DNA from: Longimicrobiales bacterium
GTDB lineage: Bacteria; Gemmatimonadota; Gemmatimonadetes; Longimicrobiales; Gaopeijiaceae
Reading direction: 5' to 3'
Assembly (NCBI GenBank): GCA_963664435.2
Contig: CAXXKM010000003.1
Location: 832,001-896,000 of the forward strand
DNA length: 64,000 bases
Under the pieces are notes generated by a model that did not search any database, was not told the origin of the DNA, and saw nothing but the letters and a program-made list of their open reading frames with translations. Each line of letters opens with the position of its first letter. Position 1 is the first letter of the stretch. Shown here piece by piece: positions 22,918 through 28,334 of the stretch. The position numbers and the translations under genes are program-made.

Positions 22918-24141
22918 TCACGCGCTCCGGCGATCGTCCATCGGCCGCAGCCGCGCCGCGCGCAACTCCGACAATGGAACCGCGGGACCGCCCCAGGCCA
23001 GTCGTCCCCGGAGCGCTACGATCATCGAGCGCCACCAGGTCCAGGCGATGACCGCACTGGCCACCGGAAGCAACAGCCCCGTCCACCAGCGGAAGCGGGA
23101 AACCCTGGCGATGCATATGGCGAACACCCAGGCCACCATCGTCGAGGCAGCGAACAATGCGGCGGCCGCCATGTCGACCGGGGCCAGCACGACGGTCAGC
23201 ACCGCCGGCGCGATTCCGGTCCACAGCAATCCGACCGTCTGCACGAAAACGGCCGAAATCCGGTAGTCCCTGAACGCGAAGAGATTCTTCTCCATCCCGC
23301 GGACCAGGTCCCGGACGGATGAATACCACTCGCACCGCACACTGGATTCGGCCCGGACCAGGTCCGAGCGGTGGCCGGTCAACTTCACCAGTCGACCCAG
23401 CTGATAGTCCTCGTCGGGACGCAGGGCCACCTGCCGGTGTCCCCCGATGGCGCGGTAGGAATCCGCCCGGAACAGGTTGTAGGCGCCGACCCCGAAGGAG
23501 GCCGTGCTCCCGGGATCGCGAACCTGCCACAGCCTCGCCGTGACGTGGGCACCCCAGTGGAACACGATCACGCAGGCCTGCAGCATGGGACTCCGCATCG
23601 CCAACGTGGGCAGAACGGCGAGATGGTCCCGGCCGTTCCTCAGGAGATGGCGCACCCCGCGCATCACTGCTTCGCGCCCGAACACCACGTCCCCGTCGGT
23701 AAAGAGGAGCAGGTCCCCGCGCGCCGACCGGGCGCCGCGCCAGGACGCGTGGTTCTTCCCGAACCATCCACCGGGCAACTCTTCGACGTGAATCACCTTC
23801 AGGCGGTCGTTCCCCGCGCTCAGGCGATCCGCAATGTCGCCGGTGCGGTCGTCGGACCGATCGTCGACGAAGATCACCTCGTAGTCCGGGTAGTCCAGGT
23901 CGAGCAGCGACGTGAGCGCCTGCTTCACCCCGTACTCCTCGTTCCGGGCCGCAACCACCACCGACAGCCGGGGCAAGCGCGGATCGCCGTCGCGGGGCAT
24001 CCCGATCTCTTCAAGGCGGAAGACATGCCGGTAGCTGTACAGGGTGACCAGTGCCATGGCGACCCAGACGACCAGCGTGACGGCGGCGGCTATGAGCATG
24101 ATGGCCAGTGTCGCCCGGGGCTTCCCGTCATCCGGCGCCAT
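22918..24141 (-). CDS. Membrane glycosyltransferase family 2 (HpnB/CrtQ-like)
   Basis: SVVVAARNEE, VDDRSDDRT, GWFGKNHA, LLFTDGD and DED motifs; N- and C-terminal TM helices. Confidence 0.85.
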   Translation of the reverse strand: MAPDDGKPRATLAIMLIAAAVTLVVWVAMALVTLYSYRHVFRLEEIGMPRDGDPRLPRLSVVVAARNEEYGVKQALTSLLDLDYPDYEVIFVDDRSDDRTGDIADRLSAGNDRLKVIHVEELPGGWFGKNHASWRGARSARGDLLLFTDGDVVFGREAVMRGVRHLLRNGRDHLAVLPTLAMRSPMLQACVIVFHWGAHVTARLWQVRDPGSTASFGVGAYNLFRADSYRAIGGHRQVALRPDEDYQLGRLVKLTGHRSDLVRAESSVRCEWYSSVRDLVRGMEKNLFAFRDYRISAVFVQTVGLLWTGIAPAVLTVVLAPVDMAAAALFAASTMVAWVFAICIARVSRFRWWTGLLLPVASAVIAWTWWRSMIVALRGRLAWGGPAVPLSELRAARLRPMDDRRSA

Positions 24142-25729
24142 GAGAGACGGAGGCTCCGGCGTGGCGGGCGCGCGCGGCCTCCGCCAGCGCCGCCCGCAAC
24201 TCGAGCCCCATGGGCGTGAGCCGGTACTTCTGCCTTCCGCTCGTGGGCTTGTCCGGGATCGTCATCTCGACGAGTCCGGCGTCAAGTGCCGGGCGCAGGT
24301 AGTTGACCACCAGGTTGCTTCGGTTCCTGAGGCCAAGGGCCTCGAGAATCTGCACTCTGGATCGCTCGCGATCCAGCACTCTTACCAGCTCCCGCACCTG
24401 CACCGTGGTCTTCCGCTCCCACACTTGTATTAGCCCTGTATGATACCTGTACGGCGCGGCCCGCTCTCTTGTACTATTTCCTTCATCGACAGGTCCTGCA
24501 GGCCCTCCCGCCTCGATATCCTGTACTGCAAACAGGCTGTCCTGTATGTCAGCGAACTCGTCATCGTCAATCGTCGACGGCTGAAGCTGGATGGCAGGGG
24601 GGCGCCTGAAACTGGTGGTCACCTTGCTTCCGGAAACCTCAATCCGAGGTTCCTCGACCCCGTACTCCCGGCAAAGCGACTTCATGCGCCGAATGCCTGA
24701 ACCGATTCCGCCCACCAGGCCCATGCGGGCGAGCATCCCGTACAGCAGCGGATTGCGGGGGACGCTCTTGGTTCCCAGATCGGCCTCGTTCATGCCCTCG
24801 GGCAGGCTGCCGGGGCTGGTGATCTCGACGCGGTCCTTGAAGACGTGCACGCGCACGTGGTTGCGGGAGCGGTAGTCACGGTGGGCGATCGCGTTCGCAA
24901 ACGCTTCGCGCAAGGCTTCCCCGGGCAGCTCGGGACGCCCTTCGGCGTCTTCACCCCAGATCGTGAACTGGACGTTGATTCTGTGCAGCACCCACGCCAG
25001 CGCTTCGTCCGCGATCTCCGGCAGCGAGCCGTGGAAGTCACGCCGCTCGAGGCTTCCCGCCTCCTCGGTTCCCCGATAGAGAGCACAGGATACATACGCG
25101 CTCTCCGTGAATTGACGAATGTCGTGGGCGAGCAGCCACGCGCCCGCGTATGTCATCCGGTCTTCGGTGTCGACCAGGCCGAGGTTGCGCAGCGCCAGGA
25201 TCGCGTGCATGGCTTCGGGAATCCTCGCCCGACCGATGAACCGCTCCCAGACGTCGGCCTTGAGATGAGCATCCATCGAGAATGCCTCGCACGGCTCCTT
25301 GTCGAAGTGCGCGCGCCCGACGGCGTAGTAGAGATCCTTGATCTCCGCGTTGGTCAGTCGCCGACTGCCCCTCCCCTCGCGCACGAACGCGCGCCATCCG
25401 ATGGAATAGGGCTTGTACTTCTGGGCGGGGACGGTCACGCACATCACCTCGCCCACGCTCTCGATCTCGACCACGATCGGCGGGTCCGAGGACCGGGCAA
25501 CGGTGAGCACCTTGACGCGGGTCCGGCGATGGTTGCCGACGCCGACCACCTCCCCGGACTTGGACACGCCGAGCAGGACGGTCCCGCCCTCTCCGTTCGC
25601 GAACGCGCACAACTCCCGGCCGAAGTCTCGCCCGAGCGAGCGCTGGAACTCGATCCCGGGACCCTCGCCTTCGGCGATCAGGTCGAGGAGCTCCTGATGG
25701 GTCAACGGTAAGCCGGCAGTCCCGAGCAC
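24128..25729 (-). CDS. AlbA_2 (Schlafen-like) + HATPase-like 'RecG C-terminal' + wHTH protein
   Basis: EGEGPGIEF, CAFANGEGGTVLLGV; ALREAFANAIAHRDY, DRVEITSPGSLP, SVPRNP, GSGIRRM; C-terminal YLRPALDAGLVEMTIPDKPTSGRQKYRLT HTH of the type found on Fic-like proteins. Confidence 0.85.
   Translation of the reverse strand: MLGTAGLPLTHQELLDLIAEGEGPGIEFQRSLGRDFGRELCAFANGEGGTVLLGVSKSGEVVGVGNHRRTRVKVLTVARSSDPPIVVEIESVGEVMCVTVPAQKYKPYSIGWRAFVREGRGSRRLTNAEIKDLYYAVGRAHFDKEPCEAFSMDAHLKADVWERFIGRARIPEAMHAILALRNLGLVDTEDRMTYAGAWLLAHDIRQFTESAYVSCALYRGTEEAGSLERRDFHGSLPEIADEALAWVLHRINVQFTIWGEDAEGRPELPGEALREAFANAIAHRDYRSRNHVRVHVFKDRVEITSPGSLPEGMNEADLGTKSVPRNPLLYGMLARMGLVGGIGSGIRRMKSLCREYGVEEPRIEVSGSKVTTSFRRPPAIQLQPSTIDDDEFADIQDSLFAVQDIEAGGPAGPVDEGNSTRERAAPYRYHTGLIQVWERKTTVQVRELVRVLDRERSRVQILEALGLRNRSNLVVNYLRPALDAGLVEMTIPDKPTSGRQKYRLTPMGLELRAALAEAARARHAGASVSHGAG
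24422..24548. repeat. Array of six CYTGTAY motifs in the linker of the AlbA_2 gene
   Basis: Copies start at 24424, 24435, 24446, 24468, 24520 and 24541; the same motif occurs twice upstream at 25749 and 25761. Confidence 0.7.
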
Positions 25730-25746
25730 ATCCGCGGGGACATCAC

Positions 25747-25767
25747 GTCCTGTATGCTCACTTGTAT
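25747..25767 (-). promoter_or_regulatory. Putative operator (two direct CYTGTAT repeats) upstream of the AlbA_2 gene
   Basis: GTCCTGTATG-ct-CACTTGTAT in an AT-richer patch 18-38 nt upstream of the ORF start. Confidence 0.5.
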
Positions 25768-25810
25768 CATGATGGCCATCGCTAAGGGCTGGTTCGCGCG
25801 GACGGCCTTG

Positions 25811-27016
25811 TCAAGGGTCACCCCCTCCCGGAGCGGCGGCACCGCCCGCGCCCGCTGATGCAAGCACGGTGATCGTGGCCGTGCCGACGTAGTTCGCACC
25901 CGCCCGCGTCGCCTTGACCTGGATCGTTCCCGTTCCCCGCCCGGCGGCGGTGACCAGGCCGCTGTTGTCCACGGTCGCCACCGACGGGCTGACCGCGGAC
26001 CAGACATAGTCGGTGTCCTCGACCTCGTGTCCGTTCGCGTCGAGGGCGACGGCGCTCAGGCGCACGGTGTCGCCGACCACGAGGGTGTCGGCCGCCGGGG
26101 TCACGCGTACCTCCGTTGCAAGCTGCGCGACCGTCACGCCCGCGGAATCGCGCAGTTCGCCGATGGTCGCGAACACGTCCGTGCTGCCGGTGCGCACCGC
26201 GGTGACCAGCCCCGCCGAATCCACGGTCACGACGGCGGCGTTTTCGGACATCCAGGTGACGGCCAGGGCCGAGCCGGGGTGGCCGTTGGCGTCGACACCG
26301 GTGGCAACCAGCCGGATGGTATCGCCGAGCGAGAAGAGCGTCGTCGCGAACGGCATCACGTCCATCTCGACGATCACCTGCGAGACCGTGACCGCGGCGG
26401 CGCCGGTGGCTGCTCCCGCTTGAGCGCCGATGTTCGCGGTGCCGTTTCCGACCGCGGTGACCAGGCCGCTGTCGTCGACGGTCGCGACGGCGTCGTCCTC
26501 GGAGGACCAGGTGATGGTTGCGTCTTCGACGGCATTGTCGTTGGCGTCGAAGGGCGCAGCGGTGAGCTGCACGGAGTCGCCGAAGGACGAGATTTCCACG
26601 GACGCCGGCGAAACGTCCACGCGCGCCGCCCGCTGAGCGACGGTGACGGAGGCGGTCCCGGCCGCACTGCCGGATGTAGCCGTGACGGTGGCGGTCCCGT
26701 TCCGGGCGGCGGTGACCAGTCCCGCGGCGCTCACGGTCGCGACCGAATTGTCGCTGGTGGTCCAGCTGACGGGGGCCCCCGCCATCGCCTGGCCGCTCTG
26801 GTCGGCGACGGCCGCGGTCAACTGGAGCGTCTCGCCGAAGGACGAGAGATCCACGGACGCCGGCGAAATGTTGACGGTTGTGGCGACGGGAGGCTCCGGA
26901 GGCTCGGTCGGCGCCGCCTCGTCATCGCCACCACAGCCGACCATGAGCGTCAACGCCACGAAGGGCACCGCAACGATGTGGGCGGGTCCGGCCCGCCACG
27001 GCTCAGGTCTCCTCAT
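25811..27016 (-). CDS. Lipoprotein with four tandem bacterial Ig-like (Big_2) domains
   Basis: Lipobox MVGC; four ~85-aa repeats (WxSxxxxVATVxxxGLVTA..GTA); DNA repeat units offset by 255 nt (26577 vs 26832). Confidence 0.85.
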   Translation of the reverse strand: MRRPEPWRAGPAHIVAVPFVALTLMVGCGGDDEAAPTEPPEPPVATTVNISPASVDLSSFGETLQLTAAVADQSGQAMAGAPVSWTTSDNSVATVSAAGLVTAARNGTATVTATSGSAAGTASVTVAQRAARVDVSPASVEISSFGDSVQLTAAPFDANDNAVEDATITWSSEDDAVATVDDSGLVTAVGNGTANIGAQAGAATGAAAVTVSQVIVEMDVMPFATTLFSLGDTIRLVATGVDANGHPGSALAVTWMSENAAVVTVDSAGLVTAVRTGSTDVFATIGELRDSAGVTVAQLATEVRVTPAADTLVVGDTVRLSAVALDANGHEVEDTDYVWSAVSPSVATVDNSGLVTAAGRGTGTIQVKATRAGANYVGTATITVLASAGAGGAAAPGGGDP

Positions 27017-27191: not shown

Positions 27192-28334
27192 TCACGGAGC
27201 ATCCAGAATCTCGAGCAGCCGCGAAAATCCGAGTATGGCGGAACGACTGCCGCTGGCGGGGGCGGCTTCCTCCAGCACCTCCGCGTCGCGCAGCTGCCAC
27301 AGCAGTCGGCGCGCCGTGCGCGGCGGGATATCGCCGGCGGACACGAAGTCGCTGACCCGGAAGACGGGGCACTCGAAGAGGCGGTCCAACGCCCGGGCCG
27401 GATGGTGGGCGCGGGCCCGGTTCGCCAGCACAGCCTCTACCTCCGTCCGCAAAGCCAGGATCGCCTCGACGACCGTCACTCCCTCCCGCGCCTGGTTCCG
27501 CATCGCGTCGAGCGCATACAGGCACCACCCCGTCCAGTCGTCGTCGCGGGAGACGCCGAGGAGCCCATCGTAGTAGAAGCTGCGGCGGGCGGCGATGCGG
27601 GCGCTCAGCCCGAAGACCGGGGCGCGGATGAGGCCGTATTGGTGCATGAGAACGGGGATCAGCATGCGCCCCATCCGCCCGTTGCCATCCAGGAAAGGGT
27701 GGATCGCCTCGAACCGGGCGTGCTGGACGGCGATCTGGACGAGCCTGTCGCGGGCGTCGGCGTGGATGTAGCGCTCCCACGCGCTCATCGCGTCCTGGAC
27801 CTGGTTTGCCGGTGCCGGGACGAAGGTGGCGGTCTCGGGAGTCGAACCTGGTGCGCCGATCCAGACGGGCGCGCGTCGGAACGCGCCGGGGGATTTGCTC
27901 CAGCCCCGGGGACCCGTGAGGAGAAGGGAATGCGCCTTGCGGATGATGCGCGGCGAGAGCGGCAGCTCGTCGAGCATCTTCCTCATCCGCCGCTCGGCCG
28001 CAAGATGGCGAACGACCTCGTGGGCGTCGTCGCGCGCATACGGGTTCGTCGGCGGCAGTCCGGCGCGCATTTCGAGCACTTCGGTCACGCTCGTGAAGAT
28101 GTCCTCAATACGCGACGACCATACGGCCTCGCGGACGCGGAGCCCGGCCAGCAACGCGCGCGAATTCGGTACCCTGGCGAGCGCGCAGTCGTATCTGGCG
28201 ACGGCGGCCGCCGCCGGCCCGATCAGCGGTGCCAGGCGGCGCCAGTCGAGGCGGTCTTCGGGCGGGAAGCCTTCGCTCCGATAGTGGACCGGCGACAAGG
28301 GTTGGGTCCCTCCGGGTTGGTGGGCGTCGCCCAA
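27192..28334 (-). CDS. Fic family protein (AMPylase motif) with C-terminal HTH
   Basis: HARFEAIHPFLDGNGRMGR; N-terminal EAVWSSRIED inhibitory-helix-like motif; PGAFRRAPVWIG. Start uncertain. Confidence 0.92.
   Translation of the reverse strand: MGDAHQPGGTQPLSPVHYRSEGFPPEDRLDWRRLAPLIGPAAAAVARYDCALARVPNSRALLAGLRVREAVWSSRIEDIFTSVTEVLEMRAGLPPTNPYARDDAHEVVRHLAAERRMRKMLDELPLSPRIIRKAHSLLLTGPRGWSKSPGAFRRAPVWIGAPGSTPETATFVPAPANQVQDAMSAWERYIHADARDRLVQIAVQHARFEAIHPFLDGNGRMGRMLIPVLMHQYGLIRAPVFGLSARIAARRSFYYDGLLGVSRDDDWTGWCLYALDAMRNQAREGVTVVEAILALRTEVEAVLANRARAHHPARALDRLFECPVFRVSDFVSAGDIPPRTARRLLWQLRDAEVLEEAAPASGSRSAILGFSRLLEILDAP

Follow-up and report, generated by a model that had tools for sequence, protein, structure and literature searches.

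The window analysed here, a 64,000-nucleotide stretch of contig CAXXKM010000003.1 from a Longimicrobiales bacterium (positions 832,001 to 896,000), carries on its minus strand a gene (24128..25705) for a Schlatpase-wHTH protein, which combines a Schlafen domain (SLFN_AlbA_2), a HATPase_c_4 domain and a C-terminal Fic-like_C winged helix-turn-helix (wHTH) domain. Directly before the wHTH-coding sequence lies an array of short repeats, and such a linker repeat is a family-wide feature of Fic-like_C genes that is constrained at the DNA level. The letters of the repeat vary in step with two residues of the C-terminal tail, so that the tail likely reads its own gene; judged from sequence comparison, sequence-specific binding of the Fic-like_C wHTH to the repeats of its own gene is highly probable. 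Matching arrays occur at further loci of the genus, in which the nuclease motif of the protein is broken. We regard it as reasonably likely that the wHTH and its repeats form a self-addressed repressor module and that the genus protein has been domesticated into a nuclease-dead repressor acting on its own gene and on a small regulon.

Repeats in the linker and upstream of the gene

The heptamer CYTGTAY, which reads RTACARG on the coding (minus) strand, had been reported in a preliminary description of this DNA as occurring six times in the linker and twice just upstream of the gene. All eight plus-strand starts were recovered as claimed (24424, 24435, 24446, 24468, 24520, 24541, 25749 and 25761), and the internal copies are spaced by 11, 11, 22, 52 and 21 base pairs (bp), again as claimed. 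The six internal sites, 7 bp each, form the intragenic array at 24424..24547 of the minus strand, and the upstream pair, a candidate operator with a 12-bp period, occupies 25749..25767 of the same strand. Both upstream words recur exactly inside the gene, GTCCTGTATG at 25747 and 24539 and CACTTGTAT at 25759 and 24422. Since the internal copies fall in reading frames 0, 1, 2, 1, 0 and 0, the repeat is one of DNA, as had been proposed, and the patch is indeed AT-richer than its surroundings, with a GC content of 0.57-0.60 at 24300-24700 against about 0.63-0.73 in the flanks. Two matches had been overlooked, namely a weaker seventh site, GTGCAGG (24397..24403, minus strand), at the position of the family's terminal repeat (T-V-Q-V), and a ninth CYTGTAY at 25412, which is probably due to chance.

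A genome-wide count found CYTGTAY 859 times when both strands of the 4.5-Mb genome are taken together (0.095 per kb per strand), and the linker array is the only cluster with at least four copies inside 130 bp. To allow for the post hoc choice of the heptamer, the scan was extended to every rare 7-mer pattern containing two R/Y positions; eight loci of the genome hold six copies of any such pattern per 125 bp, of which seven are ordinary fixed-period tandem repeats and the remaining one is the linker array. The seven ordinary repeats, of 14-24 bp, lie in the window's genome (G000) at C1:589748, C1:646870, C1:1395918, C2:389150, C2:698880, C3:953189 and C3:1250066. The contigs of all three sequencing runs, two of which may be the window's own source, are identical across the stretch.

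Two other types of locus were considered and rejected. A phase-variable simple-repeat locus is not indicated, as the spacers differ, the frame is intact in 17 of 17 orthologs and the three runs show no variants. An iteron/initiator locus is likewise disfavoured, as no initiator domain was found in Pfam or NCBIfam and the gene's surroundings on its 1.8-Mb contig are housekeeping genes.

Linker repeats across the Fic-like_C family

The Fic-like_C family comprises 4,305 clusters at 50% identity (E up to 0.001). From 273 loci of several bacterial phyla and archaea, 256 distinct Fic-like_C domains were obtained, 248 of which have a complete helix and enough upstream DNA for a search over the 135 bp that end at the domain start. 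A tandem repeat directly precedes the domain in 202 of these 248 (203 minus one run of N), compared with 11 of 246 control windows. The period is mostly 12 (128 arrays) or 11 (41), followed by 24 (17), 22 (6), 21 (5) and other values (6), and the copy number is variable across the family. The 12-base units encode peptides of the TPQV, TGEV or TEQV type, and the 11-base units present an identical DNA unit in three frames; more than one reading frame is used by the sites of 37 of 143 arrays. Spacings inside the chained arrays are 12 (358), 11 (96) and 13 (2), the chains themselves having been built from those spacings. At the wobble base of the Gln/Glu codon (unit position P9), 89 of 91 genes have A, where codon usage in the same genes would predict 30.7; the anchoring of sites on AAGT, with one mismatch allowed, biases this test upward.

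Two to eight tandem Fic-like_C modules are present in proteins P0001, P0002-P0004 and P0011, with P0001 (801 residues) carrying eight in the manner of a polydactyl-like reader. In genome G760 (C1:583034-583154, L441), a long array with a 12-bp and then an 11-bp period lies on the opposite strand, about 120 bp beyond the Fic-like_C coding sequence, and its second unit matches the neighbouring helix (Ser-Arg).

Covariation between helix residues and repeat bases

Covariation was assessed on 168 clean arrays (score at least 12; period 11, 12, 22 or 24; end at most 35 bp from the domain), 143 of which remain after 80% clustering. Most of the window's clade fails this filter, and the covariation is thus largely independent of that clade. 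Unit position P4 tracks alignment column 27, with C in 47 of 48 arrays whose domain has Asp, G in all 44 with His and G in all 24 with Ser or Gly, and P7 tracks column 28, with C for Arg (73 of 76), G for Glu (20 of 21) and G for Gln (7 of 7); all four D/H x R/E combinations are present. Furthermore, P5 and P6 track column 29, P3 tracks column 30 and the spacer base P12 tracks column 56 in the wing, while mean information is highest at columns 27, 29, 30 and 34. The code does not differ between 11-bp and 12-bp arrays, nor between Fic and ATPase cargo. In the window's protein, columns 27-30 correspond to N469-R470-S471-N472 (codons 24314..24325, minus strand) at the start of the predicted recognition helix, N469 and R470 (columns 27-28) opening helix 3 of the structural model, and the window's word (P4 = A/G, P7 = C) agrees with N469-R470. 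The pairings Arg-G, Glu-C, Asp-C, His-G and Asn-A are usual in the major groove; they need column 27 on the coding strand and column 28 on the other, which points to duplex DNA as the substrate.

The same dependence is seen among close relatives. Disjoint pairs were compared that share at least 60% identity over the 46 other columns; the base changes with the residue in all 20 pairs that differ at column 27 (P4) and in all 23 that differ at column 28 (P7); the crossed controls gave 4 following, 2 opposite and 14 unchanged (n = 20) and 8, 2 and 13, respectively (n = 23). By leave-one-out prediction, P4 is recovered in 135 of 143 arrays from the residue and in 79 from the nearest kin, and P7 in 127 and 100. 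A held-out set of 150 further proteins with 215 domains left 148 usable (12 were near the training set, 49 lacked a terminal word and the rest were gapped), and bases inferred from codons gave D:C in 53 of 60, H:G in 39 of 40, N:A in 11 of 18, R:C in 96 of 107 and E:G in 9 of 10. The suggestion that the linker motif co-varies with the HTH recognition helix is therefore borne out by close pairs, leave-one-out prediction and held-out proteins.

In a tree of the cargo (36 rows, 371 columns), close cargo relatives carry different yet matched helix/unit pairs, and the same pair recurs on distant branches, a pattern which indicates that repeat and reader travel together. The cargo tree and the covariation also uphold the earlier idea that the sites are inherited together with the HTH presumed to read them. 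The repeats lie within the gene, and the covariation suggests that the product of this gene is their cognate binder. It could be argued that the repeats are a slippage-prone low-complexity linker or a phase-variation tract and that the covariation reflects hitch-hiking, since copy number ranges widely and repeat and helix are closely linked and exchanged as modules; such an origin is extremely unlikely in view of the position-specific two-by-two code with all four combinations, the null crossed controls, the wobble constraint and the retention of the same word outside coding DNA while the spacers change. In the window, moreover, the spacers are non-repetitive, so that slippage cannot act.

Upstream copies and looping

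A copy of the linker motif near the gene start is not a rule of the family. With the gene's own 9-mer and one mismatch allowed, 4 of 99 long genes have an upstream match compared with 3.3 +/- 1.5 for the motifs of other genes. In the same genes, own words are not enriched downstream (2 versus 3.2) or on the other strand, and occur mid-gene in 8 cases versus 3.9 +/- 2.1. Paired own-word sites outside the linker were found at 6 of 168 loci against 0.6; five of these are duplicated modules and the sixth is L023. This last locus (about 1400-1430 and 2700-2780), a possible parallel case, belongs to a separate Schlatpase subfamily and has the same word at three upstream sites; its catalytic Lys is altered, with K to E in the nuclease motif.

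Of the 18 genus genomes that bear the gene, 15 retain the upstream pair; G141 and G199 have it in degenerate form, and G143 lacks it. Over 17 orthologs, strict internal sites number 6, 4, 4, 2, 2 and 1, and eleven have zero. Both orthologs with four internal sites are those with a degenerate upstream pair, and the window's copy stands out by combining the upstream pair with the internal array.

Autorepression by looping between promoter and open reading frame (ORF), as first proposed, is favoured by the existence of both site sets in this genome, but it is weakened by the orthologs that lack strict internal sites, and the retention of the upstream pair with loss of the internal array argues against obligatory looping. 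A bridging oligomer, which would join the upstream pair to the linker array over 1.2-1.3 kb, has a chance that we place between slight and small: the RzAgo Schlatpase forms a tetramer on ATP, as stated in the accessible part of its report (10.64898/2026.05.29.728809), whereas few orthologs are strong in both sets and the family shows no general upstream copy. The sequences would be better explained by control having moved out of the ORF to a place in front of the gene than by obligatory looping.

Arrays at other loci of the genus

A site matrix trained solely on linker sites of the clade ranks as its top six in G000 the linker, the upstream pair and four other phased arrays. One of these four precedes an M24 peptidase gene, another precedes AstE/AspA, a third is close to an S9 peptidase region and the last lies between the convergent genes for an S15 hydrolase and a P450. 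Recurrent array loci of the genus are positioned before the M24 gene (locus A), against the ribosome-binding site of an SPFH/flotillin-like gene (B), inside an M49-type lipoprotein gene past the signal region (C), before the AstE/AspA gene (D), before an M20 peptidase gene (E) and at the convergent S15 hydrolase/P450 junction (F). The distant arrays keep their cores and roughly 11-bp phase while their spacers change, and most of them adjoin the start codon of a peptidase, AstE/AspA or flotillin-like gene. Their logo and spacing, computed with 12 loci omitted (own-gene, coding or microsatellite), are partly circular and are not used as evidence.

A two-site pattern is present in 18 of 19 genus genomes with 2-11 matches each, counts that include the gene's own pair and some conserved coding matches. 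The reversed control gave 0-3 matches, but 6 in G770, where matches on contig C10 resemble a microsatellite. The Schlatpase gene of G770 is cut by a contig end. The complete genome G061, the only one of the genus without the gene, has no site pairs. In the rest of the bacterial family, a stricter pattern found a single match in 10 of 90 genomes, like the control, and a Schlatpase ortholog was not found in those genomes. At orthologous B, D and E loci of genomes without the gene, strict sites were zero in 17 of 17 (one 48%-identity match excluded). From these patterns, the Schlatpase-wHTH protein is likely to be the reader of the distant arrays.

A different, genus-specific factor, for example of the OmpR/PhoB type, might instead read the distant arrays and perhaps the upstream pair, leaving the linker array alone to the wHTH. 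The OmpR/PhoB-type class uses 7-bp repeats with 4-bp spacers according to the accessible text of PMC4832192, the genome of L023 has the same upstream word yet no excess of arrays of that word, and gene and arrays are shared by descent. Such a reader is nevertheless quite improbable, given that the distant arrays carry the word predicted for N469/R470, are top matches of the linker-trained matrix, are absent where the gene is absent and do not occur at lexA or recA.

Reading by the protein of the repeats in RNA, with a block of translation or guidance of the Schlafen domain to its own or other transcripts, was also weighed. At six orthologous locus types (A-E together with the upstream pair of the gene itself) the word lies on the coding strand, in several cases against the ribosome-binding site, and Schlafen domains are RNases (PMC13056530, accessible part). 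The helical-turn period, the wHTH fold and the wing residue that tracks the spacer base fit duplex DNA, and one array (L399) appears antisense, all of which makes RNA reading very unlikely.

A LexA/SOS regulon was rejected, no array being present in the 330 bp upstream of two lexA-like genes and recA. Distant arrays as a trait of the whole Fic-like_C family were likewise rejected, since 10 other genomes show no regulon-like spread of their own Fic-like_C words; the triple-core matches there fall in Fic-like_C linkers, in five Lys-Ser repeats that look like coding sequence and in a single array next to a Fic-like_C gene. The array between the convergent genes does not appear to be a deletion scar, as the intervals that are longer in relatives contain either an unrelated gene or an amidohydrolase and no Fic-like_C gene. 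Some relatives have, between S15 hydrolase and P450, a gene whose C-terminal tail is HTH-like, and others do not (L278-L287).

Loss of the nuclease motif

Prokaryotic Schlafens are reported to require an Ex4(E/D)xK motif (PMC13056530, text in part). In the window's protein this motif is broken, reading E22-GPGI-E27-F-Q29 with Lys replaced by Gln (25643..25666, minus strand). It deviates in 16 of 16 clade rows, with K changed to Q or R or the second E to G or S, and a later conserved Asp is also replaced in the clade; in 10 of 10 nearest outside homologs it is intact. The clade, which has full support in the Shimodaira-Hasegawa-like approximate likelihood-ratio test (SH-aLRT 100), is nested among intact enzymes, its sister being Latescibacterota proteins. 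Schlafen nuclease activity appears to have been lost in the clade, and an active pSlfn defence nuclease, which would have an intact Ex4(E/D)xK, is not indicated. Neither the broken motif nor the arrays elsewhere in the genome had been noticed in the preliminary description.

The motif also bears on an explanation in which the wHTH binds without controlling transcription. The array would then hold or titrate the enzyme at the gene that encodes it, possibly as a sentinel freed once that DNA is lost or copied, or would serve as a handle for recombination that carries the repeat-plus-wHTH module from gene to gene. Such a role would suit the family at large, in which most arrays are intragenic only, near the 3' end and without a promoter copy, and in which helix-unit pairs are shared by distant cargo branches and differ in close ones; one G000 array between convergent genes and the existence of tandem modules agree with it as well. 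We consider it unlikely, since most genus arrays adjoin a start codon or ribosome-binding site and lie in the transcribed orientation, and the broken nuclease motif favours regulation over the tethering of an effector.

Proposed mechanism

We propose that the Fic-like_C wHTH binds 11/12-bp direct repeats head to tail, just before its own coding sequence, and that repeat and reader together would be a portable module that damps the expression of the attached, potentially toxic enzyme. Read-out would occur in the major groove on both strands, with Asp, His or Asn contacting P4 on the coding strand and Arg or Glu contacting the base paired to P7. Binding may be cooperative, with one site per helical turn, and the ATPase could act as an oligomerisation switch linked to ATP, as in the RzAgo Schlatpase. 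Negative feedback would arise from a transcription roadblock at intragenic arrays and from occlusion at arrays near starts, and feedback on the protein's own gene is probable on these grounds. In purB, PurR bound within the coding region lowers elongation; its operator is palindromic and lies in the target gene rather than in the repressor's own gene.

The broken motif, the fixed upstream pair, the decayed internal array and the distant arrays together suggest the domesticated repressor. It is about an even chance that the picture extends further, to a portable self-addressed module in thousands of Schlafen-ATPase, Fic and other genes, which has a near one-residue-one-base code re-dialled time and again, which has been swapped among toxic cargo, and of which a nuclease-dead copy was captured here as a transcription factor, its regulon being built by new arrays.

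Several observations weigh against, or limit the case for, the self-addressed repressor and its regulon. With regard to the code, Asn at column 27 is accompanied by A in 5, G in 12 (mostly one subfamily) and C in 2 of 19 arrays; a tree-based independent-pairs test on 46 columns finds only 1-2 pairs on supported branches, too few to inform; and the distance of ~90 bp between repeat and helix, together with their joint movement between cargo genes, inflates the raw counts. With regard to the gene itself, family-wide upstream enrichment is lacking, the absence of strict internal sites from 11 of 17 orthologs makes the internal array dispensable in the genus, and a promoter scan upstream of the Schlatpase gene gave 0 sites, so that no promoter was placed. 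With regard to the regulon, some two-site matches are conserved coding sequence or microsatellite; G143, in which the gene is present, has a site at D and none at B and E; the flotillin-like and M20 loci of G000 retain only one site; G061 is a single, distantly related genome; and the gene-less outgroup loci come from more distant kin, so that their lack of arrays shows lineage specificity and not cause.

Relation to known systems

The protein shares SLFN_AlbA_2, a GHKL-type ATPase and a C-terminal HTH with the Schlatpase, or pSlfn 'HisKinase-HTH', class, which is among the commonest prokaryotic Schlafen forms according to the accessible parts of 10.64898/2026.05.29.728809 and PMC13056530. It differs from this class in its broken Ex4ExK and in the occurrence of the gene in 18 of 19 genus genomes rather than patchily. 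The accessible portions of those two papers (10.64898/2026.05.29.728809; PMC13056530) give neither a DNA target of the HTH nor linker repeats. The PF21247 domain has been solved in the Fic protein Dde_2494 (PDB 4RGL), which is the best structural match and a sequence match at E 1.2e-08; there the wHTH is on Fic, whereas here it is fused to a Schlatpase. In 4RGL, VTDQV precedes a helix with H-R, matching the prediction of the code. A literature search on Fic-like_C (PF21247) found no DNA target.

Lambda O likewise binds repeats inside its own gene, at ori-lambda (PMC5043065, seen in part). Those are 19-bp inverted repeats that serve replication initiation, whereas here the repeats are 11/12-bp and direct, the genes are chromosomal with no sign of an origin, and a residue-to-base code spans many specificities. 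As partly documented in PMC5859096, BldC resembles the proposed wHTH in binding direct repeats, variable in number and placed roughly once per turn, in a directional manner, with Arg reading the G of a C-G pair and the wing lying in the minor groove. The linker repeats are direct and spaced at about one helical turn, in line with BldC/OmpR-type sites. BldC is of a different wHTH family, however, and its sites lie in the promoters of other genes and are not encoded before the domain (PMC5859096, same portion). Thus the architecture and own-gene binding repeats are already known; for the Fic-like_C repeats, the putative code and the putative regulon, no account was found in a literature search at the level of abstracts, with few subscription journals and without supplements.

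If the code holds, it offers, gene by gene, a predicted DNA target for a large family of uncharacterised domains and suggests a way in which toxic enzymes that move horizontally could limit their own expression without a promoter of their own. Simple residue-to-base codes are rare among HTH proteins, and a 65-residue domain with matched natural site/reader pairs could yield a set of orthogonal repressors. The genus case, if true, would be a traceable passage from a defence-type nuclease to a regulator with a newly built regulon.

Gene, domains and neighbourhood

The likely start of the gene is TTG at 25705, as inferred by comparison of homolog N-termini; the longest ORF version begins at GTG 25729. 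Pfam places the Schlafen/AlbA_2 domain at residues 26-125 (25355..25672; PF04326, E 2.7e-12), the GHKL-type HATPase_c_4 at residues 291-372 (24614..24859; PF13749, E 7.7e-20) and the Fic-like_C wHTH at residues 444-505 (24215..24400; PF21247, E 3.7e-22), all on the minus strand, so that SLFN_AlbA_2 is followed by HATPase_c_4 in the domain order of Schlatpase-HTH proteins, with the HTH at the C-terminus. The Fic-like_C profile scores 78.4 bits against a gathering threshold of 27 and is the sole profile that matches the C-terminal domain, MerR-like and OmpR-type DNA-binding domains not being matched; among NCBIfam models, none matches the protein. The AlphaFold2 model of the C-terminal domain is a winged helix with a predicted local distance difference test score of 92.9, and Foldseek ranks 4RGL first, followed by wHTH types of MarR, ArsR and AspA.

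Upstream of the gene, a 22-codon ORF (25702..25770, minus strand) overlaps the upstream pair, begins on the first upstream site and ends with a stop that overlaps the likely start (TTGA); its frame and length are unchanged in close orthologs. A TTGACA hexamer (25809..25814, minus strand), a possible -35 element, is conserved upstream in orthologs, and a matching -10 was not found there.

A second Fic-like_C protein of G000 (C2:742765-742941, L002/L274) has the helix LRNLGNL and a linker without a clear array. In G064 and G132, of a sister genus, strong protein matches (L478, L480 and L496) contain a single in-frame TAG, which may reflect overrun of the alignment beyond the stop or read-through of TAG. 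A SoFic-like Fic gene (27192-28334, minus strand; PADLOC SoFic, E 1e-88) lies 1.5 kb upstream of the Schlatpase gene, the direct neighbours of which encode an Ig-like protein and a glycosyltransferase. The 3' end of the Schlatpase gene and the start of this family-2 glycosyltransferase gene share 14 bases (24128-24141), and the two genes may therefore be co-transcribed.

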